Virus record (IMG/VR): IMGVR_UViG_3300037882_001894
Span: 1 to 59,321 of that record
Length of the DNA: 59,321 nt
Source: a virus
Lineage: Duplodnaviria > Caudoviricetes
Direction: 5' to 3' (one strand)
The notes beneath the pieces are model-generated. The model was not told where the DNA came from. It made no database searches and was given only the letters and a program-made list of their open reading frames with translations. Positions within the stretch are counted from its first letter, which is position 1, and the number at the start of each line of letters is the position of its first letter. Both the position numbers and the translations under genes were made by a program. Positions 11,933 to 59,226 of the stretch are shown one piece after another.

Positions 11933-12634
11933 ATGTTCCATTGTAACGACAGTACCAATACATATTCCTTTGATCTACCTAACCACAATATTGATAAAAA
12001 TAGCAAGAAAAAACTAACACACAATCAATTATTCGTAGATAATAAACTACACGTATTAAACGTCATCACTGGTGAACTATATACCAATACCATTGATCTC
12101 TCTGCTGTACCACTACTAAAACAATATAATTTTGGTGTAGATAATAATGGTAGATTTGAAACAAGATCAAATGACAAAACTACATTTATACATGAACTAA
12201 TATGCAATCTCAAAACTAATAAGAATTGGGTGATTAATCATATAGATGGTGATCCCACAAACAACCAAAGATCAAATCTAGAATTAGTAACACAATGGTT
12301 CAACATTGCATTAATGAAAACTACTAATTCTTTGCCATTTGGTATAAAACATCATAATAATGGTAGTAGTTTTGTAACAGCAATTAATTTACCAACAATA
12401 AATCAAAAGATAACTTTTTGTTCGCTATTAACAGATTATCTCCAAAATATCCATTATCAGTTTGGGACTAAATCTGGTTTGGTGTCTCCACAAAGATATT
12501 TGAAAGAGACACCAAATTGGTTGCCAGACAACACTATAATCTTTACAGAAGCACATCAAGAAAAGCTAGATATGCTGATAGCAGAACATCTAGAGAATCA
12601 AGCAAAGTGGGATAAACCAGAATCAATATATTAG
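11933..12634 (+). mobile_element. HNH homing-endonuclease family, copy 1
   Basis: WVINHIDGDPTNNQRSNLELVT..FN; ATG 11933 aligns with the other copies. Confidence 0.85.
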
Positions 12635-12635
12635 C

Positions 12636-12664
12636 TTGACTTTAATATTTGTGTATGATATAAT
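12636..12664 (+). promoter_or_regulatory. Sigma70-type promoter directly after HNH copy 1
   Basis: TTGACT-17nt-TATAAT with TG. Confidence 0.75.
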
Positions 12665-12690
12665 TGATAAACAAGCAATGCACAATTAAA

Positions 12691-13347
12691 ATGTCCAAAG
12701 TAGCGTTCGTAGTAACTGATTTAGAAACTTTATCAACTCATGTAGCAATCGCACCTATTTTATCGATTGGTGCAGCAGTATTGGGGGTAGTTAATACTGA
12801 GGAAGGAAACTGGGTTGATGAATTACATTATAAAGGTTTCCATGAGATTGTAAATTATCCAGAACAATTGAAATTTGACAAATTTGTTAGTAAAACTACA
12901 TTAGATTGGTGGGAGAACCAAAATGATGATGCTAAGAAGTTGTTAGAAACATCTAGAACCACCAGCAATAATTTAGTACAATCTCTAATTTCTCTCTGTG
13001 GTTGGATCAACTCTATCAAAGCTGATCATGTAGTAGTATTGGGATATGGATCTAATTTTGATAACGCGATATTAGAAATAAACTATCAGGAGTATGGAAT
13101 TCCAATCCCTTGGGAATACAGGAATTCTTTATGCTTGAGAACTATTTTGAATCTATATACTCCTGTGGAAGAAGAAAATTCTATTGAAGCTGTAAAAAAA
13201 GAAGCAGCAATTTATACTAAATTCATTTTACAAGAAGAATTTTGTAAACACAATGCACTACATGATGCTGTGTACGAATCAGCCAAAGCAAGAATCATGT
13301 TTCCTTTACCATTTTGGTTAACAATCGCTAGACACATTATCAAATAA
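12691..13347 (+). CDS. DEDDh 3'-5' exonuclease (DexA / exonuclease VIII-like)
   Basis: TDLETLS, ILSIGA, TLDWW..Q, GSNFDNAIL, HNALHDA. Confidence 0.85.
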   Translation: MSKVAFVVTDLETLSTHVAIAPILSIGAAVLGVVNTEEGNWVDELHYKGFHEIVNYPEQLKFDKFVSKTTLDWWENQNDDAKKLLETSRTTSNNLVQSLISLCGWINSIKADHVVVLGYGSNFDNAILEINYQEYGIPIPWEYRNSLCLRTILNLYTPVEEENSIEAVKKEAAIYTKFILQEEFCKHNALHDAVYESAKARIMFPLPFWLTIARHIIK

Positions 13348-13350
13348 AAT

Positions 13351-15210
13351 ATGTTAGTACAAAAACGGGACGGATCTAAAGAACCATTAAATATCGATAA
13401 AATCCATCGGATGCTTGAATTAGCTTGTGATGGACTAGATGTATCCATGTCTTTAATTGAGACAACCAGCAAACTACAATTTTATGATGGTGTTACTACA
13501 AAATACATTCAAAATGTATTAATCGGTGCCACGAATAAACTTATTGATCTCGATACACCGGATTATCAATATGTGGCAGCAAGATTGTTGTTATTCGGAT
13601 TGTATAAAGATTTATACCCAAATTGGCAGACATATGGGTTGGGTTCCTTGTATCAACATCTCACTAGATTTAAAGACAAGTACGATGATGTTCTATATAA
13701 TGCTTACACCAAAGAAGAATGGGATGTCTTAGATACAGTAATAAATCATTACAAAGACTACAAATTTACTTATGTATCGTTACAGCAATTATTAGATAAA
13801 TATCTCATTCAAGATCGTGCTACTGGATTTATTTACGAAACTCCACAGTATGCTTACATGAATATTGCTGCTATGGTGTTTAGTAGTTATCCACCAGACA
13901 TCAGATTAGATAAAGTTATTGATTACTATCATGCTATTTCCAATCATGAGATTAATCTACCAACTCCGATTATGGCTGGTGTGAGAACTAAGCAAAAATC
14001 CTACGCTTCATGCGCCTTGTTGGATTTACAAGATAATATACAAAGTATTGGTGCTACTAATGCTGCTATTGGGATGCTTACTGCTGCCTCATCTGGTATT
14101 GGTTTAAATGTTGGCAGAATGCGTAGTATTGGTTCTAGTATTAGAAATGGTACTGTAATCCATCCTGGTATTGTACCATTCCTGAAAATATTTGAAGCTA
14201 CTGGTAAAGCCTTCAGCCAAGCAAATCGTGGTGGGAAAGTTACAGTATATGTTCCAATTTGGAATTACGAAATTGAGGACATTATCAGATTAAAAAATAA
14301 TCGGGGTACAGAAGAAAGTTCGGTAAGACATTTAGATTATTGTATTCAATTGTCTGGGATATTCTATAAACGGTTTTTGAATAACGAACCTATTACGTTA
14401 TTCTCCACTGATGATGTACCTGGATTATATGAGGCATTTGGTACAGATAAATTTGATGAATTGTATATGCATTATGAGAAACAAGACATCCGTAAGAAGA
14501 GTGTCTTAATGCAAAAATTATTCTTGGATTTGGTGGAAGAACGGTCTGGTACAGCAAGAATCTATATCATGAATATAGATCACGCTAATACGCACTCACC
14601 ATATGAAGAAACCGTTTGTATGTCAAATCTTTGTGTTGCACCAGAGACATTATTGCTCACTGATAAAGGATACATCCCTATTGGTGAACTACAGGATAAA
14701 CCAGTTACCATTTGGAATGGTGAAGAGTGGTCTAATACAATTGTACGAAAAACTGGTGTTAATCAAAAACTGATAAAAATTAGCTTTAAAGATCAAAACG
14801 CAAATGTTCACATAATTGAATGCACACCATACCACAAATTTAAAGTTCAATTAGAAAGATTTGTAGTAGAAGTACGTGCGGCATATTTGAAACGGGGTGA
14901 TAAAATACAAAATTATTGTCATCCAGAATTTGAACTTAAAGTCAAGAATCATCAAGACTGGTTAGTATATGATGTAGAGGATAATAATAGATATGATAAT
15001 ACATATTGTTTGACAGAACCAAAAAGAAATACGATGGTGTTGAATGGTGTACTCGCTGGTAACTGTGTCGAAATTATCCAACCTTCTCGACCTCTGAATG
15101 ATATAAATGATACTGGTGTGTATCAATACAAGGTAGCAGTCAAAAAAGACCGAATACATGAATTTGTGTCATTAAAAAACAATAATAAATTTTTGGAGTT
15201 CAAACCTTAA
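13351..15210 (+). CDS. nrdA: Class Ia ribonucleotide reductase alpha, N-terminal fragment (NrdA-a), with mini-intein
   Basis: ATP cone VQKRDG, YETPQ, PTPIMAG.RT, ASC (C225 equivalent), SNL[intein]CVEI (N437/C439/E441 equivalents); stops before the C462 equivalent. Confidence 0.93.
   Translation: MLVQKRDGSKEPLNIDKIHRMLELACDGLDVSMSLIETTSKLQFYDGVTTKYIQNVLIGATNKLIDLDTPDYQYVAARLLLFGLYKDLYPNWQTYGLGSLYQHLTRFKDKYDDVLYNAYTKEEWDVLDTVINHYKDYKFTYVSLQQLLDKYLIQDRATGFIYETPQYAYMNIAAMVFSSYPPDIRLDKVIDYYHAISNHEINLPTPIMAGVRTKQKSYASCALLDLQDNIQSIGATNAAIGMLTAASSGIGLNVGRMRSIGSSIRNGTVIHPGIVPFLKIFEATGKAFSQANRGGKVTVYVPIWNYEIEDIIRLKNNRGTEESSVRHLDYCIQLSGIFYKRFLNNEPITLFSTDDVPGLYEAFGTDKFDELYMHYEKQDIRKKSVLMQKLFLDLVEERSGTARIYIMNIDHANTHSPYEETVCMSNLCVAPETLLLTDKGYIPIGELQDKPVTIWNGEEWSNTIVRKTGVNQKLIKISFKDQNANVHIIECTPYHKFKVQLERFVVEVRAAYLKRGDKIQNYCHPEFELKVKNHQDWLVYDVEDNNRYDNTYCLTEPKRNTMVLNGVLAGNCVEIIQPSRPLNDINDTGVYQYKVAVKKDRIHEFVSLKNNNKFLEFKP
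14632..15063 (+). mobile_element. Mini-intein (144 aa, no endonuclease) at the thiyl-radical cysteine of NrdA
   Basis: SNL|CVAPETLLLTDKG ... ECTPYHKF ... TYCLTEP...VLNGVLAGN|CVEI. Confidence 0.92.
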
Positions 15211-15211
15211 T

Positions 15212-16183
15212 ATGTACGATCAACTTTTTAGAATTTTACAAGACGGCGATGCAGTATTAGACAATGAAATATTAGTAGAGAATGTTTCAATCATTGATCG
15301 CGAACCGCCTAATATTAGTAGCTGTATCTTAGGTGCCATCTCCTGGGATAAATTATCTGGTGATATGGACAAAAACTTTATTATCTTGAAACGATTATGT
15401 ATGTTAGAGATTGAATCTTTGAATAATATAATTGATCTCCAAGAATATAAAATTCCGTCTACGGAGATTGCTACCAGATGTGGCAGATATTTGGGAGTAG
15501 GGATTAATGGATTTGCTACATTTGCGGCTAGATTGGGGTTGACCTATAATGATCCAGAATTGTGGCAGATCACACATGATATTGCTGAGATGCAGATGTT
15601 TTTGTTGATGTCTGCTTCAAACAAATTAGCAAAAGATGTTGGTGAGTGCCAGTGGTTTTATAAGACAAAATATGCTAATGGTATTTTGCCAATCGATACT
15701 TATAAAAAGGCAGTTGATGAAATAGTTCCCAATGCCCTCAAAATGGACTGGGAAGGCTTGAGAAAATCAATTTATATGTATGGACTCAGAAACAGTGCTT
15801 TCGCGGCTGTAATGCCCGTACAGAGTTCATCTGTGATTAGTAACAGCACCAATGGGATTGAACTACCTCGCTCACCATTAACCATCATCAAATCTAAAAA
15901 TGGATTACTGAGACAGATTGTAAAAGATTTTGATAAATTGGAAGATAATTATACATATGCATGGGAGAAACCAACCAACAAAGGATACATCAATATCTGT
16001 GCAGTCATTCAGAAATTTTTCGATCAAAGTATATCAGCAAATGCATATTATGATCCATCATGGTATGGTGGTACTGTACCAATTTCCGTGATGACAGAGG
16101 ATATTTTGTATGCTTACAAAATGGGACTGAAGACACTATATTATTGCAATACTAACGATAATAGAGACGATATGGAGACTTGA
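15212..16183 (+). CDS. nrdA: Ribonucleotide reductase alpha, second fragment (NrdA-b)
   Basis: ISSCILGAI (C462 equivalent), LGVGING.A, GLRNS...A.MP..SSS.ISNSTNGIE, QKFFDQSISAN, GLKTLYY; no C-terminal CxxC. Confidence 0.93.
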   Translation: MYDQLFRILQDGDAVLDNEILVENVSIIDREPPNISSCILGAISWDKLSGDMDKNFIILKRLCMLEIESLNNIIDLQEYKIPSTEIATRCGRYLGVGINGFATFAARLGLTYNDPELWQITHDIAEMQMFLLMSASNKLAKDVGECQWFYKTKYANGILPIDTYKKAVDEIVPNALKMDWEGLRKSIYMYGLRNSAFAAVMPVQSSSVISNSTNGIELPRSPLTIIKSKNGLLRQIVKDFDKLEDNYTYAWEKPTNKGYINICAVIQKFFDQSISANAYYDPSWYGGTVPISVMTEDILYAYKMGLKTLYYCNTNDNRDDMET

Positions 16184-16208: not shown

Positions 16209-16236
16209 AAATACATTCACCACTAATATAAAATAT

Positions 16237-16410: not shown

Positions 16411-16421
16411 CATAAAACCAT

Positions 16422-16455: not shown

Positions 16456-16477
16456 CAACAGAATAATATAATAAATA

Positions 16478-18547
16478 ATGTCAGTAATAAACACAAATTC
16501 AAATATAGATTTTACAAAAGAACCGCAATTTTTTGGCGAAACTTTGGGAATTCAGCGATATGACCAGTATAAATATCCAGCATTACATCAGTTATACAAA
16601 ACACAAAAAAATTATTATTGGTCGCCTTCTGAAATATCCCTACAGAAAGACAGAGGCGATTATTCAACATTAACTGCTAATGAAAAGTTTATCTATACTT
16701 CTAATTTAAAATATCAAATTTTATTAGATAGTATTCAATCTCGATCTACAAGTTTAGCATTTTTGCCATTTGTATCTTTACCAGAACTGGAAAAGAACAT
16801 CATCGTTTGGAGTTTCTTTGAAACTATCCATAGTGAATCCTATACTCATATTATTGAAAATGTATATAGTGAACCATCCACTGTGTTTGATCACATATTA
16901 AACGATGTGGAAATTATTAAACGTTCCAATAGTGTTACAAAATATTACGATGAATTTATTAAACTTTCCTCAGCTTATTATAACAATGATATTGTTAAAG
17001 AATTAGTAAATGATAATAATCTCACTGCCAGATCTCTATTATTAGATTTGAAGCGGTCATTGTACCTATCAATGGTGAATGTTAATATTTTAGAAGGTAT
17101 TAGATTTTATACTTCTTTTGCTTGTTCATTCGCATTTGCTGAAAATAGTAAAATGATCGGTTCAGCAGACATTATATCATTGATTGCTAGAGATGAAGCT
17201 TGTTACACACCAGCACACGAATGTTTAACACAATCTGGATGGAAATATATTAAAAATGTAACATTAGATGATAAAGTATTGCAATTTAATAGTAACAATA
17301 CTGTGGAATTTGTAAACCCCACAGACATAATAACTAAAAAATACCAAGATGAACTATATCATTTTTATGATGATCATGATACTTTTGAGCAGATAGTCAC
17401 TAAAGATCATCGAATGATTTGGCGAGATCTTACTAATGGTAGGTTGCGAGAATCCACCGCCGAAAATACAGCTTTTACAACTAGTTATAAAGCTGTAATT
17501 TTGAGTGGGTTGTTATTGGAAGGGGAAATCGAGATTTCCCCAATTGAAATATTAAACATATTTTTTGAATATTGTGGTAGAGTAATGGCGGTATCTGGTG
17601 ATAATCTTGATCTACAAATGACATTAAAAAATGTTGATTGGTGGCGGATACTTGGTGCAGCTTTGACTAAATTAGGGATCTCCTATGATTATAAAGTTAA
17701 CTATAAAACTAGTGTATACACAGTAACATTAACTGTACCAACTATTACACTAAAGAAATATTTTGGTTGGGTAGATATTAAAGGCAAATCCACTATATGG
17801 GCACAGAATGTAATAAAACTTTGTCGCATACTAAGCAACAATATTAATTATACTACACATACCGAACCAAAGTTTAAATTTTATGTTAATAATGCAGCAT
17901 CATTATTAAAAATTCAGGAATTGTTTGCTATTTCTTATTGGAAGATACGTGCTTCAAAACACTACAAGATCAATCATGGACATACTATCACTGTAGATAC
18001 TAGCAGAAATCATGTCAAAACAAATAATATCCAAATTAAAAAAATACAATATTCTGGATTAGTGCATTGTTTGACAGTACCATCTGGTGCATTTTTAGTC
18101 CGACATAATGGTAAAGTATCAGTTGGTGGTAATTGTCATCGTAGACTGAGCGAAACTGTTATAAAAAATTGGCAGAATGGCGACGATCCTGATTTTACTG
18201 ATATCATTAAAGAAGAAGAATTGACCGTCTATGATATGTTTAGAACTGCTGTAGATGAAGAAATTGCTTGGGCGAATCATTTATTCAAGGACGGTAGTGT
18301 ATTAGGATTGAATGCAGAAATTTTGACTCAATATATCAAATTTACTGCTAATCAAAGATTAAAATCTCTTAATCTTAAACCATTGTTTCCTGATATTAGT
18401 AAGAAAAATCCAATCCCCTGGATCGATAATTATCTAAAATCTTCAAATATATCTGTTGCCCCAATGGAGACTGAGATCATATCGTATATGATTGGTAACG
18501 TTGTTCGTGACGTAGCGGAAAATCAATTTGCTAATTTTGAATTATGA
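16478..18547 (+). CDS. nrdB: Class Ia ribonucleotide reductase beta subunit with intein
   Basis: WSPSEISL, LLDSIQ, ETIHSESY, LEGIRFYTSFAC, RDEA/CH, APMETEI.SY. Confidence 0.95.
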   Translation: MSVINTNSNIDFTKEPQFFGETLGIQRYDQYKYPALHQLYKTQKNYYWSPSEISLQKDRGDYSTLTANEKFIYTSNLKYQILLDSIQSRSTSLAFLPFVSLPELEKNIIVWSFFETIHSESYTHIIENVYSEPSTVFDHILNDVEIIKRSNSVTKYYDEFIKLSSAYYNNDIVKELVNDNNLTARSLLLDLKRSLYLSMVNVNILEGIRFYTSFACSFAFAENSKMIGSADIISLIARDEACYTPAHECLTQSGWKYIKNVTLDDKVLQFNSNNTVEFVNPTDIITKKYQDELYHFYDDHDTFEQIVTKDHRMIWRDLTNGRLRESTAENTAFTTSYKAVILSGLLLEGEIEISPIEILNIFFEYCGRVMAVSGDNLDLQMTLKNVDWWRILGAALTKLGISYDYKVNYKTSVYTVTLTVPTITLKKYFGWVDIKGKSTIWAQNVIKLCRILSNNINYTTHTEPKFKFYVNNAASLLKIQELFAISYWKIRASKHYKINHGHTITVDTSRNHVKTNNIQIKKIQYSGLVHCLTVPSGAFLVRHNGKVSVGGNCHRRLSETVIKNWQNGDDPDFTDIIKEEELTVYDMFRTAVDEEIAWANHLFKDGSVLGLNAEILTQYIKFTANQRLKSLNLKPLFPDISKKNPIPWIDNYLKSSNISVAPMETEIISYMIGNVVRDVAENQFANFEL
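17201..18133 (+). mobile_element. Intein (311 aa) in NrdB, endonuclease apparently degenerate
   Basis: RDEA|CYTPAHECLTQSGW ... VTKDHRM ... VHCLTVPSGAFLVRHNGKVSVGGN|CH. Confidence 0.9.
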
Positions 18548-19239
18548 TCCATTATAACGACAGCACCAATCTACATTCTTTCGATCTCCCCAATCACAAT
18601 GTTACTAAATCCACTAATACTATAAAAACATATAATCAATTATTCGTAGATAATAAACTACACGTACTAAACACCATCACTGGTCATTTCTATACCAGCA
18701 CTATCGATATTTCTGCTGTACCACTACTAAAACAATATAATTTTGGTGTAGATAGTGCTGGTAGATTTAAAACATGGATAAATAGAAAAACTACATACAT
18801 ATACGAACTAATATGCAATATTAAAACTAATAAGAATTGGGTGATCAATCATATAGATGGTGATTCTAACAACAACCAAAGAGCAAATCTAGAATTAGTA
18901 ACAAATTGGTTCAATACTGCATTGAAGAAAACTACTAATTCTTTACCATTAGGTATGACCCATCATGGTACTAGTTTTAAAACACAAATTTGTCTACCAA
19001 CTACCACACAAAAGATAACTTTTTGTTCGCTATCAACAGATTATCTCCAAAATATCCATTATCAATTTGGTACTAAATCTGGATTAGTATCTCCAGCAAG
19101 ATATTTACAATCCACACCAAATTGTTTGCCTGACAACAGCATAATATTTAAACCAGCACATCAAGAAAAGTTAGATGTGCTGGTGAGAGAGCATCTAGAG
19201 AATCAAGCAAAATGGAATAAACCTACTCCAATATATTGA
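18544..19239 (+). mobile_element. HNH homing-endonuclease family, copy 2
   Basis: MIHYNDSTN... WVINHIDGDSNNNQRANLELVTNWFN; ATGA overlap with nrdB stop. Confidence 0.85.
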
Positions 19240-19268
19240 TTGACTCTAGCATTAATATATGATATAAT
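19240..19268 (+). promoter_or_regulatory. Sigma70-type promoter directly after HNH copy 2
   Basis: TTGACT-17nt-TATAAT. Confidence 0.75.
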
Positions 19269-19504: not shown

Positions 19505-20419
19505 ATGAGAGATTTATACGAAGAGATTCAAGAATATTATTTGTTACAAGAAGCATTATCCAAAGAACCATCTACACCAATCGAGGATTATGAAGATGGT
19601 AGAACAAGAACTACCAGATTAACTAAGTACAAAAATGTATCTGGGTTCCAACCAGGAAATAAGTATCATCCTGATTATTCTGGTGTGCGCCATGATGTTT
19701 CATGGAACAATAACATCGATTCAGATCGAATGGATCACAAACAAAAAAAAGATTCTTTGCACGATGCTATGCACTTGCATAATCATTTTATTAAACACGG
19801 CACCAAACCAGGGGATATTGTGTCTAATATGCCTATTCCTGATACTAGCGATGAGCATAGTAGCAATAAAAGATCCAGAATATATTCTAAAATGGCTGGA
19901 TTTGGACAAGTTGGTGATGATGGTGAACAACACGGTATAGTGAAACAGCATCCCCATGACCATGAGGATGAGTCTAAACGTGGACAGCACTATCTACATC
20001 CATTAGAGCATCATGAGATAGAAGCACATGGTGATAAGCCATCTAGAGGCAGTACAGACAACACCACCAGACATCTAAGACAGAAATATGGTGATAACAC
20101 ATTCACACACACTAAACACAATAATGCTGTACATAAGCTGAAATCTACAGGTAACAATCACGAAGTAGATGAAAATAAATATGATGGTGAAAATAGTTAT
20201 AGTGGTGCTGATTATGATAAAGCACACAAAGCTAGTATAGCTAATCATACAAAACCAGGAGATAGTGTATCTCGTACTACTTTTCGTGATGATAAAAATC
20301 TTTCTAGTGTGTCTCGCGGTCATCAAATGGGATTTGGCGCACCAAAAACAAAATTCGATACATATACACAACACGCTAAAATTGGTAAGGATGGTAAACT
20401 AATTCCACACAATACGTGA
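19505..20419 (+). CDS. His/Asp/Lys-rich late protein
   Basis: TAAATA at 19476; internal repeat HGTKPGD / NHTKPGD...GFG. Confidence 0.6.
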   Translation: MRDLYEEIQEYYLLQEALSKEPSTPIEDYEDGRTRTTRLTKYKNVSGFQPGNKYHPDYSGVRHDVSWNNNIDSDRMDHKQKKDSLHDAMHLHNHFIKHGTKPGDIVSNMPIPDTSDEHSSNKRSRIYSKMAGFGQVGDDGEQHGIVKQHPHDHEDESKRGQHYLHPLEHHEIEAHGDKPSRGSTDNTTRHLRQKYGDNTFTHTKHNNAVHKLKSTGNNHEVDENKYDGENSYSGADYDKAHKASIANHTKPGDSVSRTTFRDDKNLSSVSRGHQMGFGAPKTKFDTYTQHAKIGKDGKLIPHNT

Positions 20420-24963: not shown

Positions 24964-25488
24964 ATGAAAATAAACAATCCTAATGTAAATAGTATGTTGT
25001 TCCCTGAAATATTCTTGAGTATTTCTAACATGGTGGGGAATACTAACAAAGCTAATCTAATAAAAGAATATAGAAGTAGTGTTCATGGTAATGCACTAAC
25101 CACCTTGATTTTCTTGATCTACAATAGTAAATTAGAATATAGATTACCCGAAGGCGAACCACCTTATAAGATCAATGATGTACCAATTGGCACCACACAT
25201 ACTATATTAACTGTCGAGCATAAACATCTATACAGATTTGTCAAAGGTGGACATGACGCATTACCACAACGAAAAGTTGAAGATCTCTATATTCAATTGT
25301 TAGAATCTCTACATCCTTCTGAAGCTGATCTATTGATTCGTATTTTTAATCGTAGTTTTGAAACTATTTGGAAGGGTGCAAGAAAATACAATATTCCCTT
25401 TGATGCTATTAAATTAGCTTATCCAGAGATTTTATGGAGTGAAAGAAAATCTGATATTGTTGTCCCAAAAATAAAAACTTCTCGCTAA
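24964..25488 (+). CDS. Conserved T4-like phage hypothetical protein
   Basis: LPEGEPPYK.ND.P.GT.HT.L, LYRFVKGG, IQLLESLHPSEA. Confidence 0.7.
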   Translation: MKINNPNVNSMLFPEIFLSISNMVGNTNKANLIKEYRSSVHGNALTTLIFLIYNSKLEYRLPEGEPPYKINDVPIGTTHTILTVEHKHLYRFVKGGHDALPQRKVEDLYIQLLESLHPSEADLLIRIFNRSFETIWKGARKYNIPFDAIKLAYPEILWSERKSDIVVPKIKTSR

Positions 25489-25516
25489 TTTTCAAATATT
25501 GTGTTATAATAATAAT

Positions 25517-25894
25517 ATGAAAATATTAAATTGCACAAAGAAAGACGTTAAGATTTTTGACAAAACATGTCTTACCAAAGATTATGATGATTGGATGGTC
25601 GATCAAGATAAAATTCCGATGTTCAAATTATATCCAACATCGGAAGAAGATTATTCGGTATTGCATATTCCTGATACCGAATCTATACACCCGATTATTA
25701 AATTATTTAAGGCTGCTTCACCAAATATTCCATCAGACGGGTATGACTATTACATAGTAAATTACAATCAATTAATTTACTATGTAGCCAATAATATCCA
25801 TGTTGGTAAACTGGTGCTGCCGCATGACTATGTACTTGGTGATTATTTTGAAATCTCTGGGTACACTTCACTAAAATTAGTAACATATGATTAA
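25517..25894 (+). CDS. Hypothetical protein
   Basis: ATG just after TGTGTTATAAT (25500-25510). Confidence 0.5.
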   Translation: MKILNCTKKDVKIFDKTCLTKDYDDWMVDQDKIPMFKLYPTSEEDYSVLHIPDTESIHPIIKLFKAASPNIPSDGYDYYIVNYNQLIYYVANNIHVGKLVLPHDYVLGDYFEISGYTSLKLVTYD

Positions 25895-31944: not shown

Positions 31945-32016
31945 ACGCTATCTTCTTGTTGATACATTAATATTTAGTTTATTGTGTTATAATAGATATA
32001 CAATTATTTGATGATC

Positions 32017-32712: not shown

Positions 32713-32791
32713 TGTCTCTCCAGATGCCTCTAGAATGCCCTACAACAGACGATAACTACGAAAACATATACAACTATCAAATTTAATAAAT
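32709..32791. repeat. ~83-bp dispersed non-coding repeat, copy A
   Basis: ctaatgtctctccagatgcctctagaatgccc...tatacaactatcaaatttaataaat; matches 53486..53568. Confidence 0.85.
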
Positions 32792-42889: not shown

Positions 42890-42924
42890 ATGTGTTATAA
42901 TGGATCATAATTTACAAATATTGT

Positions 42925-43623: not shown

Positions 43624-46077
43624 ATGGTAGTAAAGATGCTACTGCTACTGATGATCAATCCTAATTTTTCCACCACCAACAACCTAAACGAAAATAACTA
43701 TTATTTTGGAGTAATTGAATCTGTAAATGATCCGTTGGGTTTGCATCGGGTAAAGTGTAGAATCATTGGTGTCCACAACGACAATAGAAAGTTATTAACT
43801 ACTAATGATTTGCCTTGGTCATTGGTGGCCAACCCAACTGATGGCACTGGTAAGCATACTTTGAAACCAGGGAATTTTGTAGTGTGCGTATTTGTCGATC
43901 AGGATCTACAACAGCCTGTAGTTCTTTATACTCTATTCAGCAAGATAAAAACCAACAATATTAAATTTAATAGTATCGACGATGTTAGATCTCCTGGTAC
44001 AGTATTCTTAACCAACAACACCAGCAAAATTCCAGACCAAATCATATATGATGGTAAATTAGCAAATGAGATAGTGGCAAAATCCCAATTAATTGCTGAT
44101 ATTGGTAATCCATATGGGCGGAATACCAACACACCGACAGCAAATGGTAAATCTGGTGGAGTAGGTATATTTGAGGATATTCAGCGTGAGATTGTATCGT
44201 TAGCGAATATCTTTAAGTATGTAGAATTGTATGATACTGATGATATTACATTGTCTGAGGATATTGATGAAGGTGTTGGGTTTATACCATTATCCAGAGT
44301 AGAGAGTATACCTAGATCTGGTATTATTAAAATTGATAATGAATTTATCACATATAATGGGATAGCTGACACAGGATTGTCTGGACAAATCATGCGTGGA
44401 TCTCCAGATCGCGGTGAAATAGTACCATCATTTAATGCTACACATACTAAGGGAACATCAGTACAATGGATCTATCCAATCGTTAAGAATGATAATGCAC
44501 CGTTATTTTATAGTAAACTGACTGGACAAGCAATTAATTTTGGCAAAGAGATCAAAAAAAAAATGTCAGTCATTTCTGGATACATTACCTGGATTACCTC
44601 ACAAATATCAGCGCAAATCACAAAATTATTAAGTGAACTAATATCCAACATCACACTAGTATTAAAATCACCAATAGCAATAACTGGTAAACTGATAGTA
44701 GATGCTTTATTGCTAATTTTGTCTCAAGTATTGTGTGCGTTTAATAAATCTACTGTTGACAGCTTAGTAGATGTGATTGAGAATTATATTACAGAGCAAT
44801 TGATGGGTGTGGTGAAGATGTTTTATGCTGCTGGGGGTGCTGTAACAGATTTTATAACTAATTGTAGTAATAAAATATTTGATGCTATCTTACAATTTTC
44901 CAGCATTATACAATCGGTTGGTACCATTATCAATGCTGTGACCGCTACAAAATTTCCTACAGCATCCTCTTTCAATATATCTGATGGTGATGGTGGGTTG
45001 TCAATGGAATCTATTACATCAGCAGCACCGATTGTTGGTAATTTATTAAATTTATTAGGTTTGGGTTGTCGGACAGATGTTGGTGAGAATAAGATCACTT
45101 ATACTGATAACAATGGTACTACTTGTACTACTAATGGTTACTTCCCTGATGCTATATTATGTGCGCCAAATCCAGATATAATTGGTGAATTGAACAATCT
45201 GTATCGACCGTTACCAGCATTTATTACATCTTATGATTTCGGTGGTGGATTGAAGATAGAGCAAGATAACACGCCTGGTACAGAGCGTACACTAATCCAG
45301 TCACCAGCAGGTACATATACTGAAGTTTTTAATGATGGCACCAGCAAGACTGTTATCACGAAAGATAATTATACACTCATTCTAAATGATAATTTTGTAG
45401 AAATTAAAGGTGCTGCTTATTTCAAGGTAGATGGTGATTTTGGGTTAAAAGTGTCAGGTAACATGGATATTGAAGTAGGCAAAGAATTGAGAATGAATAT
45501 TGGCGGAGCATCAAAGATCACTTACGGAGGTTCGCATAATACTAATTATAATAATGATGCTATTATTAATGCCACTAATAAATTGTCGATCACTGGTGCC
45601 CAAATAGGTTTATCGGGTAGTGGATCAGTAGATATCGCTGGTGGCGTATTTACTACTGTAGTAAATGAAGCAAATATCACTTCACTTGGATCGTTATCAT
45701 TGTTGTCGTTATACAGCAATCATGTTAGTACGTTATCACACAAAGAGATCCACAGCGGATCTGTTGACAAATTAGTATTAGGTACTGAGAAAACTATTAA
45801 TTTGTCCACACATACAGCAGATTATATTGGTGCTAGAACAGAGAATCATAGTAGTATACTGACCACCAATGTCTCTGGTATACACAACGTAACTAATAAC
45901 AGCGTATACAATGTTTCTTCAAAGTTAAAAGTAGAAAATGTATCAGAATTATTACAATTGACTACAAAACTCACTGTGAATAACAGTCAAACTACGACAA
46001 ATAATGTTAGTGGTAGTTATTTTACTTATGCTGGTGGGATCAATGTTCGTTCTTCTTCTGCAAACTTTGACAGTTGA
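43624..46077 (+). CDS. gp5: Baseplate central spike / hub protein (no lysozyme domain seen)
   Basis: OB fold GVIESVNDPLGLHRVKCRIIGVH..LPW; EQDNTPGTER...AGTYTE; beta-helix repeats; start may be 43651. Confidence 0.85.
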   Translation: MVVKMLLLLMINPNFSTTNNLNENNYYFGVIESVNDPLGLHRVKCRIIGVHNDNRKLLTTNDLPWSLVANPTDGTGKHTLKPGNFVVCVFVDQDLQQPVVLYTLFSKIKTNNIKFNSIDDVRSPGTVFLTNNTSKIPDQIIYDGKLANEIVAKSQLIADIGNPYGRNTNTPTANGKSGGVGIFEDIQREIVSLANIFKYVELYDTDDITLSEDIDEGVGFIPLSRVESIPRSGIIKIDNEFITYNGIADTGLSGQIMRGSPDRGEIVPSFNATHTKGTSVQWIYPIVKNDNAPLFYSKLTGQAINFGKEIKKKMSVISGYITWITSQISAQITKLLSELISNITLVLKSPIAITGKLIVDALLLILSQVLCAFNKSTVDSLVDVIENYITEQLMGVVKMFYAAGGAVTDFITNCSNKIFDAILQFSSIIQSVGTIINAVTATKFPTASSFNISDGDGGLSMESITSAAPIVGNLLNLLGLGCRTDVGENKITYTDNNGTTCTTNGYFPDAILCAPNPDIIGELNNLYRPLPAFITSYDFGGGLKIEQDNTPGTERTLIQSPAGTYTEVFNDGTSKTVITKDNYTLILNDNFVEIKGAAYFKVDGDFGLKVSGNMDIEVGKELRMNIGGASKITYGGSHNTNYNNDAIINATNKLSITGAQIGLSGSGSVDIAGGVFTTVVNEANITSLGSLSLLSLYSNHVSTLSHKEIHSGSVDKLVLGTEKTINLSTHTADYIGARTENHSSILTTNVSGIHNVTNNSVYNVSSKLKVENVSELLQLTTKLTVNNSQTTTNNVSGSYFTYAGGINVRSSSANFDS

Positions 46078-46095
46078 TGATATGTGTGTTATACT
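46067..46095 (+). promoter_or_regulatory. Sigma70-type promoter for HNH copy 5
   Basis: TTGACA-17nt-TATACT with TG. Confidence 0.7.
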
Positions 46096-46118: not shown

Positions 46119-46808
46119 ATGATCCACTATAACGACAGCACTAATACATATTTCTTCGATCTACCTAATCATAATGTAGACAACAGTAGAAAATTAACAT
46201 ACAATCAGTTATTTGTAGACAATAAACTACACGTACTAAACACCATCACTGGTGATCTTTATACCAACACTATTGATCTCTCTGCTGTATCACTACTAAA
46301 ACAATATAATTTTGGTGTAGATGATAATGGTAGATTTCGTACCCAGCTAAATAGAAAAACTATATTCATATATGAACTGGTGTGTAATACCAAAACCAAC
46401 AGGAATTGGGTAATTAATCATATAGATGGCGATCCTAGTAACAACCAAAGATCAAATCTAGAATTAGTAACACATTGGTTCAATACGGTATTACAAAAAA
46501 CTACCAACTCTCTGCCATTGGGTATAAAACATAATGATAATAGTTTTCTAACACAAATTTGTTTACCTACTATCGACCAAAAGATAAATTTTTGCTCACT
46601 TTCAATAGATTATTTACAAAACATCCATTATCAGTTTGGTATCAAATCCAAATTAGTATCTTCAGCAAGATATTTGGAAGCTACACCAAATTGGTTGCCA
46701 GACAACAGCATAATATTTAAACCAGATCATCAAGAAAAGCTAGATATGCTGATCTCAGAGCATCTAACAAATCAAGCAAAGTGGAATAAACCTGAACCAA
46801 TATATTGA
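46119..46808 (+). mobile_element. HNH homing-endonuclease family, copy 5
   Basis: MIHYNDSTN... NHIDGDPSNNQRSNL. Confidence 0.85.
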
Positions 46809-46837
46809 TTGACTTTAACATCTGTGTATGCTATAAT
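46809..46837 (+). promoter_or_regulatory. Sigma70-type promoter directly after HNH copy 5
   Basis: TTGACT-17nt-TATAAT with TG. Confidence 0.75.
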
Positions 46838-52775: not shown

Positions 52776-53489
52776 ATGGTTGTAGAAATACAGCCATTTT
52801 TTATGCCCAAATATAATCAAATTCACTACGTCTATATCACCACTCATAATATCACAGGAGAATACTATATTGGCAAAAGAACTACCAAAAAAGATATAAA
52901 ACAATCCCCAGAAACAGATAATTATTATGGATCTGGTACTTGGGTGAAGTCTATTTTGGATAAAACATTGCTGACTAAAACGGTAGTGGGTGTATATGAT
53001 TCTTTTGATGAATCTAGTGATGCAGAATACAATTTGATAAAAGAACATATAGAAAATCCATTGTGTACTAATATTAGGGTTTGTAGCAGTTCTGGGCATT
53101 TCGGTAAAATTCCATCAGAAGAAACTAAATTAAAAATATCAGTATCGTTATCTGGTGAAAACAATCACAATTTTGGTAAAACTCCATCAGATGAAACTAA
53201 ATTAAAAATATCGGTGAGGAATTCTGGTAAAATTCCATCAGAAGAAACTAGACAAAAATTATCAATAGCGGGAATGGGCAGAACACAAAAAGCTAGTACA
53301 AAGAAAAAAATAGCCTCGGCGCAATATGGCGAAAAAAATCATGCGGCAAAATTAACACAACTACAGGTAGAACAAATACGGATAATGCTATCAGATGGTT
53401 TAAAGCAAAAAGATATAGCTAGTAGATTTGGAGTGGCAGAGGGTACAATCAGTAAAATACATACTGGTGTAAGATGGAGTGCTGTCTAA
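52776..53489 (+). mobile_element. GIY-YIG homing endonuclease with NUMOD3 repeats and C-terminal HTH
   Basis: YVYITTHNITGEYYIGKR, YYGSG, three PS(E/D)ET..K.S repeats, GEKNHAAKLT...IA.RFGV....ISKI. Confidence 0.88.
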
Positions 53490-53568
53490 CGTCTCCCCAG
53501 ATGCCTCTAGAATGCCCCACAACGCATATAAACTATAAAGACGTATACAACTATCAAATTTAATAAAT
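53486..53568. repeat. ~83-bp dispersed non-coding repeat, copy B
   Basis: ctaacgtctccccagatgcctctagaatgccc...tatacaactatcaaatttaataaat; matches 32709..32791. Confidence 0.85.
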
Positions 53569-53570
53569 GA

Positions 53571-53942
53571 ATGGATTTCGCTCATACTAATATGGATTCA
53601 AAAGTTTGTCATCATTGCACAAATGGATTAAGATTAGAAAATAATTGTAATAGATCTGAATATTATTCTGCTTATTATAAAAACATCCAGCCACAATTGA
53701 AATATTACATATTGCCATGTGATCGGTGTTGGCATGGGAAATTTATTAAAGATTTCTACAACTTCCCAGAAACAGAGATTTTAGGTTATAGACAAGATTG
53801 CTATCGAAATATAATGGTTACTACGATAGATGGTAGTGAAATGTCACCAACAGAAATGTTGTACAATTGGATCAAATATAAATCTTTGACAAAACCAAAT
53901 AATCCATCAAAAAAATATGATCCACTACAACGACAGCACTAA
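53571..53942 (+). CDS. Hypothetical protein with CxxC pairs
   Basis: CHHC...CDRC; 3' end overlaps HNH copy 6 by 26 nt. Confidence 0.5.
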   Translation: MDFAHTNMDSKVCHHCTNGLRLENNCNRSEYYSAYYKNIQPQLKYYILPCDRCWHGKFIKDFYNFPETEILGYRQDCYRNIMVTTIDGSEMSPTEMLYNWIKYKSLTKPNNPSKKYDPLQRQH

Positions 53943-54615
53943 TACATATTCCTTTGATCTTCCTAATCATAATACATATAAAGGTAGTAAACTAACATAC
54001 AATCAATTATTTGTAGACCATAAACTACACATACTAAACACCATCACTGGTGATCTCTATACCAACACTATTGATCTCTCTTCTGCACCACTACTAAAAC
54101 AATATAATTTTGGTGTAGATAATGATGGTAGATTTCAAACAAAAGCAAATGGAAAGATGGTAAAAATATACGAATTGATATATGGTATCAAAACTAATTC
54201 AAATTGGGTCATCAATCATATAGATGGCGATCATACAAACAACCAAAGAGCAAATCTAGAATTAGTAACTTTATGGTTCAACACAGCATTAATGAAAACT
54301 ACTAATTCTTTACCATTAGGTATAAACCATGATAATGGTAATAGTTTTAGAACACAAATTAATTTACCAACTATACAACAAATTATAACTTTTGGTTCAA
54401 AATCAATAGATTATCTCCAAAATCTCCATTATCAGTTCGGCACCAAATCTGGCTTGGTGTCTCCACAAAGATATTTGAAAGAGACACCAAATTGGTTGCC
54501 TGATAACAGCATAATCTTCGCAACAAAACATCAAGAAAAGTTAGATCGATTAATAGTAGAGCATCTAGAGAATCAAGCTAACTGGGATAAACCAGAATCA
54601 ATATTTATTGATTGA
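53917..54615 (+). mobile_element. HNH homing-endonuclease family, copy 6
   Basis: MIHYNDSTNTYSFDLPNHN... NHIDGDHTNNQRANL. Confidence 0.85.
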
Positions 54616-54640
54616 CTTTAATGTCTGTGTATGGTATGAT
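54612..54640 (+). promoter_or_regulatory. Sigma70-type promoter overlapping the HNH copy 6 stop
   Basis: TTGACT-17nt-TATGAT with TG. Confidence 0.7.
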
Positions 54641-54663: not shown

Positions 54664-54846
54664 GTGAATATTATGTTGGACGGGGTAATAGATTTCGCAT
54701 ATAGCTTTGAACATTGGTTGATCATCATGACTAGGGAAAAAGATCAACATCATATATCGGTTTTCTTTGATTCTTTGTCTTGGTGGTGGTATTATGACAA
54801 TGCAGCACAAAACTTTTCCAATTGTTTCTCTCAAAAATTAGATTAA
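54664..54846 (+). CDS. Small hypothetical protein
   Basis: Fills the gap between the promoter and the RNA ligase gene. Confidence 0.4.
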   Translation: MNIMLDGVIDFAYSFEHWLIIMTREKDQHHISVFFDSLSWWWYYDNAAQNFSNCFSQKLD

Positions 54847-54851
54847 AAAAT

Positions 54852-56954
54852 ATGGCTGAACTAACCGTTAACGTTGTAAGAATTGAAACAGTAACAACAC
54901 ATCCAAATGCGGATAGATTGGATCTAATTACATTAGTAGATCTAGGATATCAAGTGATCAGTGGCAGGGGTAATTACGAAGCTGGGCAATTAGCATTTTA
55001 TTTTCCGATTGATGCAGTGATTCCCGAAAAATATGTATTGGAGTTTGGGATTAGTGCATATTATAATAACCGATTACGAGCAACTAAACTACGTGGTTTG
55101 TTCTCAGAAGGATTGTTGGTGCCAATTGATCCTTATTTCTACCAATTTGATCCAGAACTCAAACCAGGAGATGATTATACAGAATTTTTTGGAGTAACAA
55201 AATACCAACCCCCAGTAACCATAGGACAAGGCAAGAATCCAAATCCAATTGGTGAAGAACGATTCCCATCACCAGAACATTTGAAAAAGTATAAAGGAAT
55301 TTTTGAAGAGGGCGAAGAAGTAGTCATAACAGAAAAGATTCATGGTTGTTTTCCAAAAAATGCTAAAATAACTATGCATGACGGAACTACAAAAAATATT
55401 TGCGATATCAAAACTGGTGATATTGTACTGGGTGTCGATAAAGATTTAACTCCAATTCCCACGCCAGTGACTAATACATTCATAAATGGCATTACTGATA
55501 TTTGGGTAAAAATACAAACAAAACATACAGAATCTCCAGCAATAAATAAAAACATTGTATGTACACCAAATCACCAAGTTTATGTAATTGGTCGTGGTTA
55601 TGTTGAGGCACAACAACTTACTACTGGTGATAGACTATTGACAGTAACTAAATTCCTAGTGTTGAACAACATTGCTAAAAGTGTGTTAATAGGTAAAGCA
55701 TTAGGTGATGGATATATAAACAACAAAACTGGCAATACTAATATATCATTTGGTCATAAAATCTCTCACGAAGAATATTTAGATTATTGTTTGTCATTGT
55801 TGGGCAATTTAACATCAAGAACAAAACACTATAGAACTTCTGGGTACGGCAGTGCAATCGTCGCTAGTAGAAGCAAAAATGCTTTATGCATCACTAAAGA
55901 GTTTGAAAAATGGTTTGATGTTAATACTAATAAAAAAATAATTCCATCCGACTTGGTATTAGATAATCTATCATTGGCAATCTGGTATATGGATGATGGT
56001 AGTCTTTCTCACACAGAATTGCAACAAGATAGAGTAAATTTTGCTTCCTGTGCATATTCAGATGTCGAATGCAATTATTTAATTAATGCATTAATTAAAT
56101 ATGGGTTTAATGAACCAAAGTTATATAAAGATAATTTGGGATATAATAGAATTAGATTGAATTTCCGAGATGCAAAACTTTTATTTGAATCTATAAAAGA
56201 GTTAGTGCCTGAATGTATGCAATATAAATTACCTTTAGAATATCGAGGTAACTTCAAATCACCAATATTACCACCAGATCTTTATGATTATTCTACAACA
56301 TCTTCAATAATTACTGGCATTGAAACTATATCTTCATCAAATTATCCTTCAGATTTATCTAATAGTCCATATAATAAAAAGTATGACATAGAAACTGAAA
56401 CTCATAACTATTTTGTAAGTGGAAGCTTAGTACACAATTCAAACTTTTCTATTCATAAAGATGTTGATGGTAATATTAAAGTTGCCAGTCATAATTGTTT
56501 CTGGGATGACACTGAAGAAAACCAAAAAGTACCACAAATCGTATTATTTCATCAATCACCAGAATTTTTAGAATTGCCCAATAATGTTATTGTGTATGGT
56601 GAAGTTTATGGTAGCAAAATTCAAGATCTTACTTATGGTTTAACTGGTATAGATTATGTTTTATTTGCTGTGTCTAAAGAAGGTGTATTTTTAGATTATG
56701 ATGATTTTGTAGAATTTTGTAATTATTACAAATTGAAACGTACTCCAGAATTATATCGTGGTAAGTATAGTTATGATGTTGTGCAGCAATTTAATAATAT
56801 TGATAGCAAATTAGTAAAAAATGCTCAGATGTCTGAGGGCGTTTGTATTATTCCAGTTAAAGAGCGTTGGGATCGTTCTATCCAATCGCGAGTATGTATG
56901 AAATTTGTTTCCGACCGTTATTTGTTGCGAAAAAATGGAACCGAGAACAAATAA
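54852..56954 (+). CDS. RNA ligase (DRB0094/Rnl2-like) with intein
   Basis: HPNADRL, KLRG..SEGL, motif I TEKIHG/SN, YGEVYG..IQ, SEGV, K.VS..YL. Confidence 0.88.
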   Translation: MAELTVNVVRIETVTTHPNADRLDLITLVDLGYQVISGRGNYEAGQLAFYFPIDAVIPEKYVLEFGISAYYNNRLRATKLRGLFSEGLLVPIDPYFYQFDPELKPGDDYTEFFGVTKYQPPVTIGQGKNPNPIGEERFPSPEHLKKYKGIFEEGEEVVITEKIHGCFPKNAKITMHDGTTKNICDIKTGDIVLGVDKDLTPIPTPVTNTFINGITDIWVKIQTKHTESPAINKNIVCTPNHQVYVIGRGYVEAQQLTTGDRLLTVTKFLVLNNIAKSVLIGKALGDGYINNKTGNTNISFGHKISHEEYLDYCLSLLGNLTSRTKHYRTSGYGSAIVASRSKNALCITKEFEKWFDVNTNKKIIPSDLVLDNLSLAIWYMDDGSLSHTELQQDRVNFASCAYSDVECNYLINALIKYGFNEPKLYKDNLGYNRIRLNFRDAKLLFESIKELVPECMQYKLPLEYRGNFKSPILPPDLYDYSTTSSIITGIETISSSNYPSDLSNSPYNKKYDIETETHNYFVSGSLVHNSNFSIHKDVDGNIKVASHNCFWDDTEENQKVPQIVLFHQSPEFLELPNNVIVYGEVYGSKIQDLTYGLTGIDYVLFAVSKEGVFLDYDDFVEFCNYYKLKRTPELYRGKYSYDVVQQFNNIDSKLVKNAQMSEGVCIIPVKERWDRSIQSRVCMKFVSDRYLLRKNGTENK
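55347..56438 (+). mobile_element. Intein (364 aa) with LAGLIDADG endonuclease in ligase motif I
   Basis: KIHG|CFPKNAKI ... CTPNHQ ... IGKALGDG ... LAIWYMDDG ... YDIETETHNYF...VHN|S. Confidence 0.92.
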
Positions 56955-56993
56955 AACTTGCCGTATAAATATTAATATTAAACTTAATAGTAT

Positions 56994-58070: not shown

Positions 58071-58074
58071 AATT

Positions 58075-58569: not shown

Positions 58570-58573
58570 AACT

Positions 58574-58837
58574 ATGGATATCCAAGCAATTAAAGAAGAT
58601 TTTCAAGCACAACTGAAGCAAGAAGCAGAAACGATCACCGAATTGAATCAAAAACTACAACAAGCGCAACAACACGCTCTAAAATTACAAGGTGCTGTAG
58701 AGGCTTTAACATTGGTGATCGATAATACTGTGGCACCAGAAGAAATTGTTGATGATTTTGCCACTGGTGAGATTGTCGAAACTGCGGTAGTAAAGACACC
58801 TAACAGCAGAAAAAAGCAAAATCCTGAATTTAATTAA
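58574..58837 (+). CDS. Small coiled-coil protein
   Basis: Gln-rich heptads, LKLQGAVEAL. Confidence 0.55.
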   Translation: MDIQAIKEDFQAQLKQEAETITELNQKLQQAQQHALKLQGAVEALTLVIDNTVAPEEIVDDFATGEIVETAVVKTPNSRKKQNPEFN

Positions 58838-58838
58838 A

Positions 58839-59057
58839 ATGGATATAAATTCGCTATCTGACAAAATAGTTGCTGAAATTTCTGAAGCTTTTGATAATAT
58901 GGGCATTACAGACGTTGATAAAGCAAGCAAGCGCATATCTATTTGTAATAATTGCTCTAACTATCTGACTGCAACTAAACAATGTAAACTATGTGGTTGT
59001 TTTGTACCGATTAAGGCTAGATTAAAATCTGCTGTTTGTCCAAATAACTTATGGTAA
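58839..59057 (+). CDS. Small Cys-rich protein (DUF6171-like)
   Basis: R..IC..C.....QC..CGCF...K.......CP...W. Confidence 0.7.
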   Translation: MDINSLSDKIVAEISEAFDNMGITDVDKASKRISICNNCSNYLTATKQCKLCGCFVPIKARLKSAVCPNNLW

Positions 59058-59063
59058 ACTAGT

Positions 59064-59096
59064 AAAAAAACAGCATATTCAATATGCTGTTTTTTT
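59064..59096. terminator. Bidirectional Rho-independent terminator
   Basis: aaaaaaacagcatatt-c-aatatgctgttttttt. Confidence 0.85.
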
Positions 59097-59129
59097 GTGC
59101 TATAATGGATATACAATTATTTGTAACAC

Positions 59130-59226
59130 ATGATCCACTATAACGACAGCACTAATACATATTCTTTCGATCTTCCTAACCACAACATTAATAAAACTGG
59201 TAGTGGTGGTAATACTAAAAAATTAT
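59130..59226 (+). pseudogene. HNH family copy 7, interrupted after codon 32
   Basis: MIHYNDSTNTYSFDLPNHNINKTGSGGNTKKL then unrelated sequence; in-frame stop at 59271-59273. Confidence 0.85.

Follow-up and report, generated by a model that had tools for sequence, protein, structure and literature searches.

Dispersed families of HNN-AP2 endonuclease genes are known from the Xanthomonas oryzae phages Xp10, OP1 and Xop411, which carry 6-8 such genes each, at positions that differ between related phages and with degenerate copies interpreted as the outcome of gain and subsequent decay; the same report also lists further phages that have more than one HNH gene (Lee et al. 2007, PMC2248197, as far as its available text goes). 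Here we describe a comparable set of dispersed HNH/HNN-AP2 copies in a T4-like phage from the environment. The DNA analysed is a stretch of 59,321 nucleotides (IMG/VR record IMGVR_UViG_3300037882_001894, 59,321 bp, classed as linear and estimated to be 31% complete), called the window throughout. It holds six intact open reading frames (ORFs; n=6, copies c1 to c6) of 229-233 amino acids and one 5' stub (c7), all on the + strand. Two elements of the encoded protein, a hairpin before the HNH motif and the strands of an AP2 domain, evolve in a way that rejects neutrality, and we think it likely that the copies are free-standing homing endonucleases of the HNH(HNN)-AP2 type that were retargeted through these two DNA-reading modules. 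Activity, homing, retargeting and promoter function are what we infer from the DNA and its predicted proteins.

The likeness to described systems has its bounds. The Xanthomonas phages are 44-kb siphoviruses of a GC-rich host, unlike the present T4-like phage with its GC content of ~33%, and against their 6-8 copies we count 12 loci in 118.6 kb; in comparison with the available part of that report (PMC2248197), site-wise selection on putative DNA-contact residues is the feature reported here. The same domain pair, the AP2-HNH class of Magnani et al. 2004 (as cited in the accessible text of PMC1524935 and PMC10448857), is present in free-standing genes of the T4-like phages RB43 and RB49 (PMC1524935), for which the excerpts of these two papers report no large, closely similar co-resident family such as the one found here. 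A free-standing position between core genes is shared with T4 mob (HNH) and seg (GIY-YIG) genes and with mob-like genes of vibriophage phi-pp2, some of which have their own promoters and some of which are co-transcribed with the upstream gene (PMC3468402, available sections); the phi-pp2 mob-like paralogues, however, have only 27-37% similarity, whereas the copies described here are 71-79% identical. The claim of an earlier sequence-only reading that co-resident homing endonucleases are usually highly divergent therefore holds for phi-pp2, but sets of alike HNN-AP2 copies had already been published (PMC2248197). The ICP1-like phages resemble the present case in lineage-specific expansion, in likeness within a lineage, in proximity to essential genes and in frameshifted copies, although their expanded nuclease families are T5orf172 and IPA-HNH (PMC10448857, excerpted text). 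Multi-copy HNN-AP2 families with turnover are already known (PMC2248197), and what is added here is that two DNA-reading elements diversify at specific sites, and do so in a second paralogue set as well; a literature search for positive selection in phage homing endonucleases gave no paper on phage paralogue families among the 15 matches listed of 472.

Domain architecture and site-wise selection

The predicted product joins an HNH nuclease of the I-HmuI type to an AP2 DNA-binding domain. It falls into four parts: a beta domain at the N-terminus, a beta-hairpin with a His-Me nuclease that resembles I-HmuI, the AP2 domain and C-terminal helices. The Pfam domain HNH_3 (PF13392) was found in all six window copies, in five of them above the cut-off (26.4-29.8 bits against 24.8) and in copy 2 below it (23.5), and PHROG HNH families 99, 59 and 959 match copy 4. 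A profile built from 76 family and distant sequences matches I-HmuI at E=1.9e-8 and the AP2 domains of WRI1 (E=1.1e-11), TEM1 (4.8e-5), ERF96 (1.5e-4) and AtERF1 (5-8e-4). The AlphaFold2 model of c4 has a mean predicted local distance difference test score of 93.7, and its AP2 region is predicted to comprise strands 139-141, 144-150 and 157-162 followed by helix 165-178. I-HmuI, an HNH nicking endonuclease of the Bacillus phage SPO1 (PDB 1u3e), is the best structural and sequence match, over residues 56-136 and apparently with the same arrangement of beta-sheet and His-Me finger: it was the top hit of a Foldseek search against the PDB (probability 0.96, E 8.6e-3), which returned nothing at E <= 0.001, and VIA-align placed 77 residues on it at a root-mean-square deviation of 3.5 and 23% identity, with a Z of 4.4 that is low by the tool's guidance. 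The AtERF1 domain aligned to model residues 133-190 (56 aligned of its 63-residue chain, root-mean-square deviation 3.1) at a likewise low Z of 4.1, and the AP2 domains of WRI1, ERF96, TEM1 and PfSIP2 gave low Z values of 3.2-4.0. Unlike the present family, I-HmuI is intron-encoded, its solved chain has 174 residues, and an Asp precedes its catalytic His. Its C-terminal end is, we presume, a helix-turn-helix domain rather than AP2.

The catalytic H103 and the helix N124 are present without exception in the 35 family members, N111, N115 and L116 are invariant too, and the proportion of nonsynonymous differences (pN) falls to 0.017 around the catalytic residues. Some features of the protein nonetheless speak against the proposed function. 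The structural Z values are low even for the best two matches (4.1-4.4), so that it is chiefly the sequence profile that supports an AP2 domain, and single sequences give no Pfam AP2 match at E <= 1. In all 35 members it is Asn that precedes the catalytic His, where I-HmuI has Asp; among 41 distant homologues this position is Asp in 35, Asn in five and His in one. According to the available text of a review, a D/E/H before the His often takes part in binding the metal ("often coordinated by D/E/H"), and the helix Asn is mostly the sole direct metal ligand (PMC5714182). We take the Asn to be a variant within the HNH_3/I-HmuI-like class and not a reason for exclusion from it; nuclease activity is plausible, not assured, and may be altered by this residue.

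Variation among the copies was proposed from the letters alone to be concentrated in three patches on a nearly invariant scaffold, namely the loop after LPNHN, the hairpin after GRF and the strand after LP.G. Our alignment reproduces, letter for letter, both the conserved strings of the scaffold and the variable strings of all three patches, and the patches are real, with a pN of 0.34-0.40 against 0.11 for the remaining gene; the statistical clustering, however, is only modest (permutation p=0.04-0.08 for the maximum windowed pN; p=0.019 and p=0.011 for lag-1 and lag-2 autocorrelation of pN).

Codon models were fitted with a likelihood program of our own writing, which holds the synonymous rate constant across sites. 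A single ratio of nonsynonymous to synonymous rates (omega) comes to 0.33 under model M0. Model M2a is preferred to M1a by a likelihood-ratio test statistic (LRT, twice the difference in log likelihood) of 33.6 (p=5e-8) and assigns ~7% of sites an omega of 4.0 and 64% of codons an omega of 0.08, that is, strong purifying selection; the corresponding values are 44.5 for M8 against M7 and 30.6 for M8 against M8a. The copies have recombined (PHI test, p=0.002), and trees of different segments pair them differently. On a star tree the M2a-M1a LRT is 45.0. On segment trees it is 28.5 for columns 61-120 (sites 77, 79, 80 and 86) and 9.9 for columns 121-180 (p=0.007; sites 149, 151, 153 and 160), and the values for columns 1-60 (1.09) and columns 181-236 (0.78) lack significance. 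Given so small a value for columns 1-60, we regard the loop after LPNHN as relaxed only. A second set of paralogues, made up of five copies from a relative (contig G003, described below) and one from another contig, gives an LRT of 16.6 (p=2.5e-4). Five of the 10 selected sites of the first set are among the 13 of the second (231 common columns, hypergeometric p=5e-5).

It could be argued that the patches are unconstrained, neutral surface loops and that omega above 1 is an artefact of recombination and a low local synonymous rate. This argument has real support, and the same observations weigh against the retargeting that we favour: the pN of the patches (0.34-0.40) merely equals the gene-wide proportion of synonymous differences (pS, 0.36), patch-level pN/pS is only 1.0-2.1, and pS falls to 0.03-0.2 in or beside the patches in both paralogue sets (permutation p=0.01-0.03). 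Recombination and low local synonymous divergence can each inflate tests on omega, part of the overlap between the two sets may reflect common relaxed constraint, and in the loop after LPNHN no excess is seen and the model is less confident. On the other side, M2a beats M1a in two independent sets, star and segment trees agree, the LRTs from nine simulations under M1a stayed within 0-5.7, and the selected residues alternate along beta-strands instead of lying in loops, at positions that recur in both sets. We regard the neutral account as unlikely. Neutrality is rejected, and the tests support evolution of the hairpin before the HNH motif and of the AP2 strands at omega above 1. The stretches of low pS lie at columns 55-75 and 136-148 of the HNH alignment (in c4, window 43090-43150 and 43330-43365), and the dip could be due to codon composition, to conversion hot spots or to constraint at the nucleotide level.

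When placed on the predicted structure, the AP2 selected sites 146, 148 and 150 (c4 numbering) alternate along the modelled strand 144-150, and site 157 opens strand 157-162. In the profile alignment, Q148, R150 and A157 of c4 stand opposite E160, R162 and R170 of AtERF1. We take E160 and R162 of AtERF1 to contact bases. R150, R152, R170 and W172 of AtERF1 are named as residues that bind the GCC box (PMC3602543, available text). The notion that DNA-contact residues were retargeted thus fits two of the three patches, the hairpin after GRF and the strand after LP.G (AP2 beta-strand 2), both with omega above 1 and both repeated in a second lineage, but not the loop after LPNHN. The locus offers a clean natural experiment. 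Some twelve paralogues have a single well-modelled scaffold in common, presumably with a separate site for each copy; their differences centre on some ten residues in two DNA-reading elements, a pattern that is repeated in a second lineage. Were the targets of the copies mapped, a residue-to-base recognition table for HNH-AP2 enzymes would result, useful for understanding how homing endonucleases colonise new sites and how AP2 domains read DNA, and for the engineering of nickases.

Copy number, age and turnover

Two further contigs are probably from the same phage as the window. Contig G002, when reverse-complemented, ends with 88 bp that are 100% identical to the start of the window; contig G001 shares its metagenome of origin and its GC content with the window record, and we infer from this that it belongs to the same genome. 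Over the window, G001 and G002 (118,558 bp) we count 12 loci genome-wide: nine intact copies, one frameshifted in an A-run (g2a), one that starts at amino acid 97 near a contig end (g2c), and the stub c7. An environmental T4-like phage can thus bear a heavy load of selfish elements. The stub and the frameshifted g2a have an unusual long loop in common, TGSGGNTKK (window 59195-59215; reverse-complemented G002 ~19240-19255), and in each of them the break coincides with, or immediately follows, the same six-A run.

Within the window, amino acid identity is 75-78% to copy 1 and 75-79% to copy 4, mean column identity is 83%, and DNA identity is 78.5-84.0% over ~700 nt in all 15 pairs. That the copies arose from a collapsed repeat or other assembly artefact is scarcely credible: contigs of this phage do end in or near repeated elements, but the copies differ pairwise by 16-21% in DNA, have unique flanks, and each is a separate sequence in the protein database. 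The full-length family is narrow, with 666 proteins at E <= 0.001 and only six at E <= 1e-30 in a search of 1.84 billion representatives. No named phage matched a 5.2-kb stretch at the DNA level, and a protein search of named phages gave three records with a best identity of only 31%; the nearest named phages are distant (Vibrio phage YC, 32%; cyanophages, 47% over part of the helicase).

The expansion had been suggested to be recent. It is not, since Nei-Gojobori means over 36 pairs are dN 0.16, dS 0.50 (range 0.35-0.69) and omega 0.34, and the closest pair has 86.6% DNA identity. The paralogue tree is star-like, with internal supports of 50-73. In a joint protein tree (FastTree; ten of this phage's copies included), those ten copies and two metagenome proteins form one clade with support 1.0, in agreement with the expansion of one family within a phage lineage, and the copies of G003 form a separate clade; the remnant at the primase site of G003 does not group with c1. 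Copies group by phage lineage, not by locus. Between copy g1a and one metagenome protein (P0012) identity is 85%; the AP2 strands are the same, but five of 10 hairpin positions differ.

The presence and absence of copies was compared with one distant relative, G003, a 109-kb contig that is largely syntenic and has core proteins 40-75% identical to those of this phage. It has five intact copies, partial matches at six further places and one more 5' stub seen by eye. The site of c3 is a 63-bp gap in G003, and the intervals that correspond to c2 and c5 have no family match there; conversely, one G003 copy sits where this phage has a 35-bp gap. At the c1 site, after the primase, G003 has a copy that is internally deleted and contains a stop codon; at the c4 site, in the gap between the tail protein gene and gp5, its copy lies in the opposite orientation; and at the g2a site its copy has the same orientation. 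The remaining sites are rearranged or ambiguous between the two phages. At a site where G003 is reduced to residues 1-24 and 213-233, a third lineage (locus L032) has an almost complete copy that contains a stop codon. Closer relatives, sought by means of the gp5-type protein, were absent from the viral contigs, and a metagenome scan gave only relatives at 36-40%; a look-up of sequencing runs with a 6-kb stretch listed none. Free-standing homing endonuclease genes are expected to leave a series of inactivated copies, and the frameshift, the partial copy and the stub of this phage, with at least six partial copies in G003, form such a series.

These comparisons bear on a different history, in which the insertions are old and positionally stable, predate the split from G003, and only seem lineage-specific because gene conversion mimics expansion within a lineage. 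The PHI test and the disagreement of segment trees are in keeping with such concerted evolution, as is the occupation of three sites in both phages (after the primase, beside terminase-like genes, and between the tail protein gene and gp5) by copies that cluster by genome. The copy between the tail protein gene and gp5 is, however, in the opposite orientation in G003, exact empty gaps are found both ways (63 bp and 35 bp), and a dS of 0.35-0.69 with a star-like tree indicates no recent homogenisation. This history strikes us as quite improbable.

A further explanation is that the copies have been domesticated and benefit the phage as weapons against co-infecting relatives or satellites, as nucleases against host DNA, or as AP2-type regulators with a weakened nuclease, and that diversifying selection reflects an arms race with targets outside the phage genome. 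The intactness of nine of the 12 loci, the 64% of codons held at omega 0.08, the Asn in place of the usual Asp beside the catalytic His (35 of 35) and the early-type promoters of the cassettes would all suit such an array, for which ICP1 Odn and the satellite repressor CapR, documented cases of domesticated homing-endonuclease domains, offer precedents (PMC10448857, in its excerpted text). We nevertheless find this improbable: G003 has decayed copies at at least six places and a different site occupancy, the catalytic His and the helix Asn are strictly kept and would be needless for pure DNA binding, and the copies are single and lie beside conserved core genes, as is typical of homing endonucleases.

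Cassettes, their ends and a model of spread

All six ORFs were confirmed on the + strand at the coordinates first read from the sequence, and each sits between other ORFs. With the short motifs at their ends they form the following cassettes of the window.

11898-12664, + strand: cassette c1; ORF 11933-12634, 233 amino acids, between the primase and exonuclease genes
11898-11908, + strand: 5' end of c1, extended -10 box TGTGCTATAAT
12636-12664, + strand: 3' end of c1, TTGACT-N17-TATAAT
18544-19268, + strand: cassette c2; ORF 18544-19239, 231 amino acids, without a 5' box of its own
19240-19268, + strand: 3' end of c2, TTGACT-N17-TATAAT
31983-32791, + strand: cassette c3; 5' box 31983-31993, ORF 32017-32712
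32709-32791: 3' end of c3, a repeated element of ~80 nt
42891-43620, + strand: cassette c4; 5' box 42891-42901, ORF 42925-43620, 231 amino acids
46067-46837, + strand: cassette c5; ORF 46119-46808, 229 amino acids, between gp5 and a tail fibre gene
46067-46095, + strand: 5' end of c5, TTGACA-N17-TATACT with TG
46809-46837, + strand: 3' end of c5, TTGACT-N17-TATAAT
53917-54640, + strand: cassette c6; ORF 53917-54615, 232 amino acids, without a 5' box
54612-54640, + strand: 3' end of c6, TTGACT-N17-TATGAT
59096-59309, + strand: remnant c7; 5' box 59096-59106, about the first 30 codons at 59130-59221
59247-59262, then 59281-59309: downstream of c7, a terminator-like hairpin followed by TTGACA-N17-TATAAT

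Neighbouring genes were assigned by PHROG matches. The ATG of c2 overlaps the stop codon of nrdB (ATGA); c3 is flanked by two minus-strand genes, for a baseplate tail tube cap and a gp2-like DNA end protector; c4 lies between a tail protein gene and the gene for a gp5-type hub/lysozyme, which starts 3 nt past the c4 stop; and c6 is flanked by a homing-endonuclease gene of phrog_314 and an RNA ligase gene with a LAGLIDADG insert. The neighbours named beforehand were mostly right (primase, nrdB, gp2-like, tail protein, gp5), but the gp4 label was not, as the tail tube cap and the gp2-like end protector stand at that place. The start of the seventh copy at 59130 was likewise correctly placed. It had been called interrupted, which proved wrong: the protein match covers residues 1-24 only, likeness in DNA to another copy reaches 59221, and 40 nt of the hairpin stretch match the backbone of G003 at 90% identity in the syntenic direction. 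Because backbone that matches G003 follows the stub, c7 is a truncated remnant before ordinary backbone and not a gene broken by an insertion. A group I intron interrupting this copy was considered and is unsupported, Rfam scans of the window and of the contig ends being empty: no Rfam match (introns included) and no tRNA was found in the window scans, and an Rfam E-value scan of three contig-end loci gave no match.

The extended -10 box TGTGYTATRMT occurs seven times in the window against 0.5 expected, and six of the nine boxes in the three contigs of this phage lie 34-36 nt before the ATG of an HNH copy. In G003, four of 12 boxes lie 35-37 nt before HNH copies or remnants and a fifth (g3r 95460) leads into the further 5' stub. 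The leader from box to ATG is common to HNH copies only. At the other end, TTGACW-N17-TATRAT occurs nine times in the three contigs, six of them at HNH 3' ends; five are within 2 nt of, or overlap, an HNH stop codon and one lies 60 nt past the c7 stub. Only these specific motifs and their placement are informative, because the total of sigma-70-like sites is not above that of shuffled sequences (106 against 106.9). An intergenic repeat of ~80 nt, which may be a common cassette terminator, is found 3' of c3, of g2a, of a phrog_314 gene and of another ORF (window 32709-32791 and 53486-53568; reverse-complemented G002 11791-11851 and 19915-19985), and a related sequence with a small hairpin lies 3' of three G003 copies.

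The description of the expansion as transposon-like had to be given up, as no terminal inverted repeats bracket the cassette in the three of three that were examined, where only short scattered pairs were found, and Pfam shows no transposase domain, HNH_3 being the sole domain under E 0.01 and a LisH_2 match in copy 1 (E 0.41) being noise. A transposon or insertion sequence is rejected on these grounds. A diversity-generating retroelement is also rejected, RVT_1 being found in none of the three records, which make up part of the genome.

We propose that the cassettes would spread as free-standing homing endonucleases do. During mixed infection, each enzyme would nick or cut the cassette-free allele near its own locus, and recombinational repair would then copy the cassette into the cut allele. 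A duplicate could colonise a new locus once its hairpin and AP2 sheet had changed so as to give it a new specificity, gene conversion may shuffle the hairpin and AP2 modules between copies, and old copies would decay. Most cassettes carry a putative sigma-70-type extended -10 promoter 34-36 nt before the ATG, and the outward-facing 3' promoter of several of them may restore transcription of the downstream core gene. A more far-reaching possibility, which we hold only tentatively, is that the copies make up a self-diversifying set, in which two modules on a rigid scaffold are varied by diversifying selection and conversion among about a dozen copies, so that the genome would serve as a library of homing specificities and portable promoters at both ends would rewire the adjoining core genes.

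Spread of this kind by homing has observations against it. Near-identical copies are absent, so that there is no sign of very recent movement; of the two additional contigs only G002 overlaps the window, membership of G001 resting on metagenome and GC content; and three of the nine boxes here and seven of the 12 in G003 are away from any HNH copy or remnant. To judge from this distribution, TGTGYTATRMT is a general promoter type of both phages, and the 5' box could be a landing site rather than cargo of the cassette.

Other probable mobile elements in the same phage

The phage appears to carry several other mobile elements beside the HNH-AP2 copies. The nrdB gene (window 16478-18547, 689 amino acids) matches the small subunit of ribonucleotide reductase at residues 1-241 and 553-686, and the insert of ~300 amino acids between these matches has weak matches in common with unrelated intein-bearing genes; it is probably an intein. 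A gene for a DnaB-like helicase (window 2371-4755, 794 amino acids) has a weak LAGLIDADG_3 match at residues 412-454, and that for the RNA ligase (window 54822-56954, 710 amino acids) has a LAGLIDADG homing-endonuclease match at residues 286-471. Both inserts are probably inteins as well. The large subunit of ribonucleotide reductase appears to be split over adjacent ORFs (window 13351-15210 and 15212-16183), the first with an ATP cone, an N domain and only positions 1-213 of the 523 of the barrel model, and no endonuclease gene lies between the two.

A structured element of ~100 nt is common to two contig ends (those of loci L020 and L018), where it falls within nt 1-96 of reverse-complemented G002 and nt 1-140 of reverse-complemented G001; its 37-nt core is 97% identical between the two. 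Its flanking hairpins differ by compensatory changes. It has no Rfam match, and a search of viral contigs matched only its source contig; in G002 it directly adjoins the HNH copy whose sequence begins at amino acid 97.

A second, unrelated homing-endonuclease family, phrog_314, which has a C-terminal helix-turn-helix, is present in two to three copies, at window 52776-53489, directly upstream of c6, and at 12062-12697 and 2532-3050 of reverse-complemented G002; its two longest copies have 72% DNA identity. Lastly, a different HNH gene lies 18 nt downstream of copy g1b, with which it forms a small endonuclease island:

25304-25927 of reverse-complemented G001 (locus L017 3043-3666), minus strand in L017: HNH gene of phrog_59, 207 amino acids

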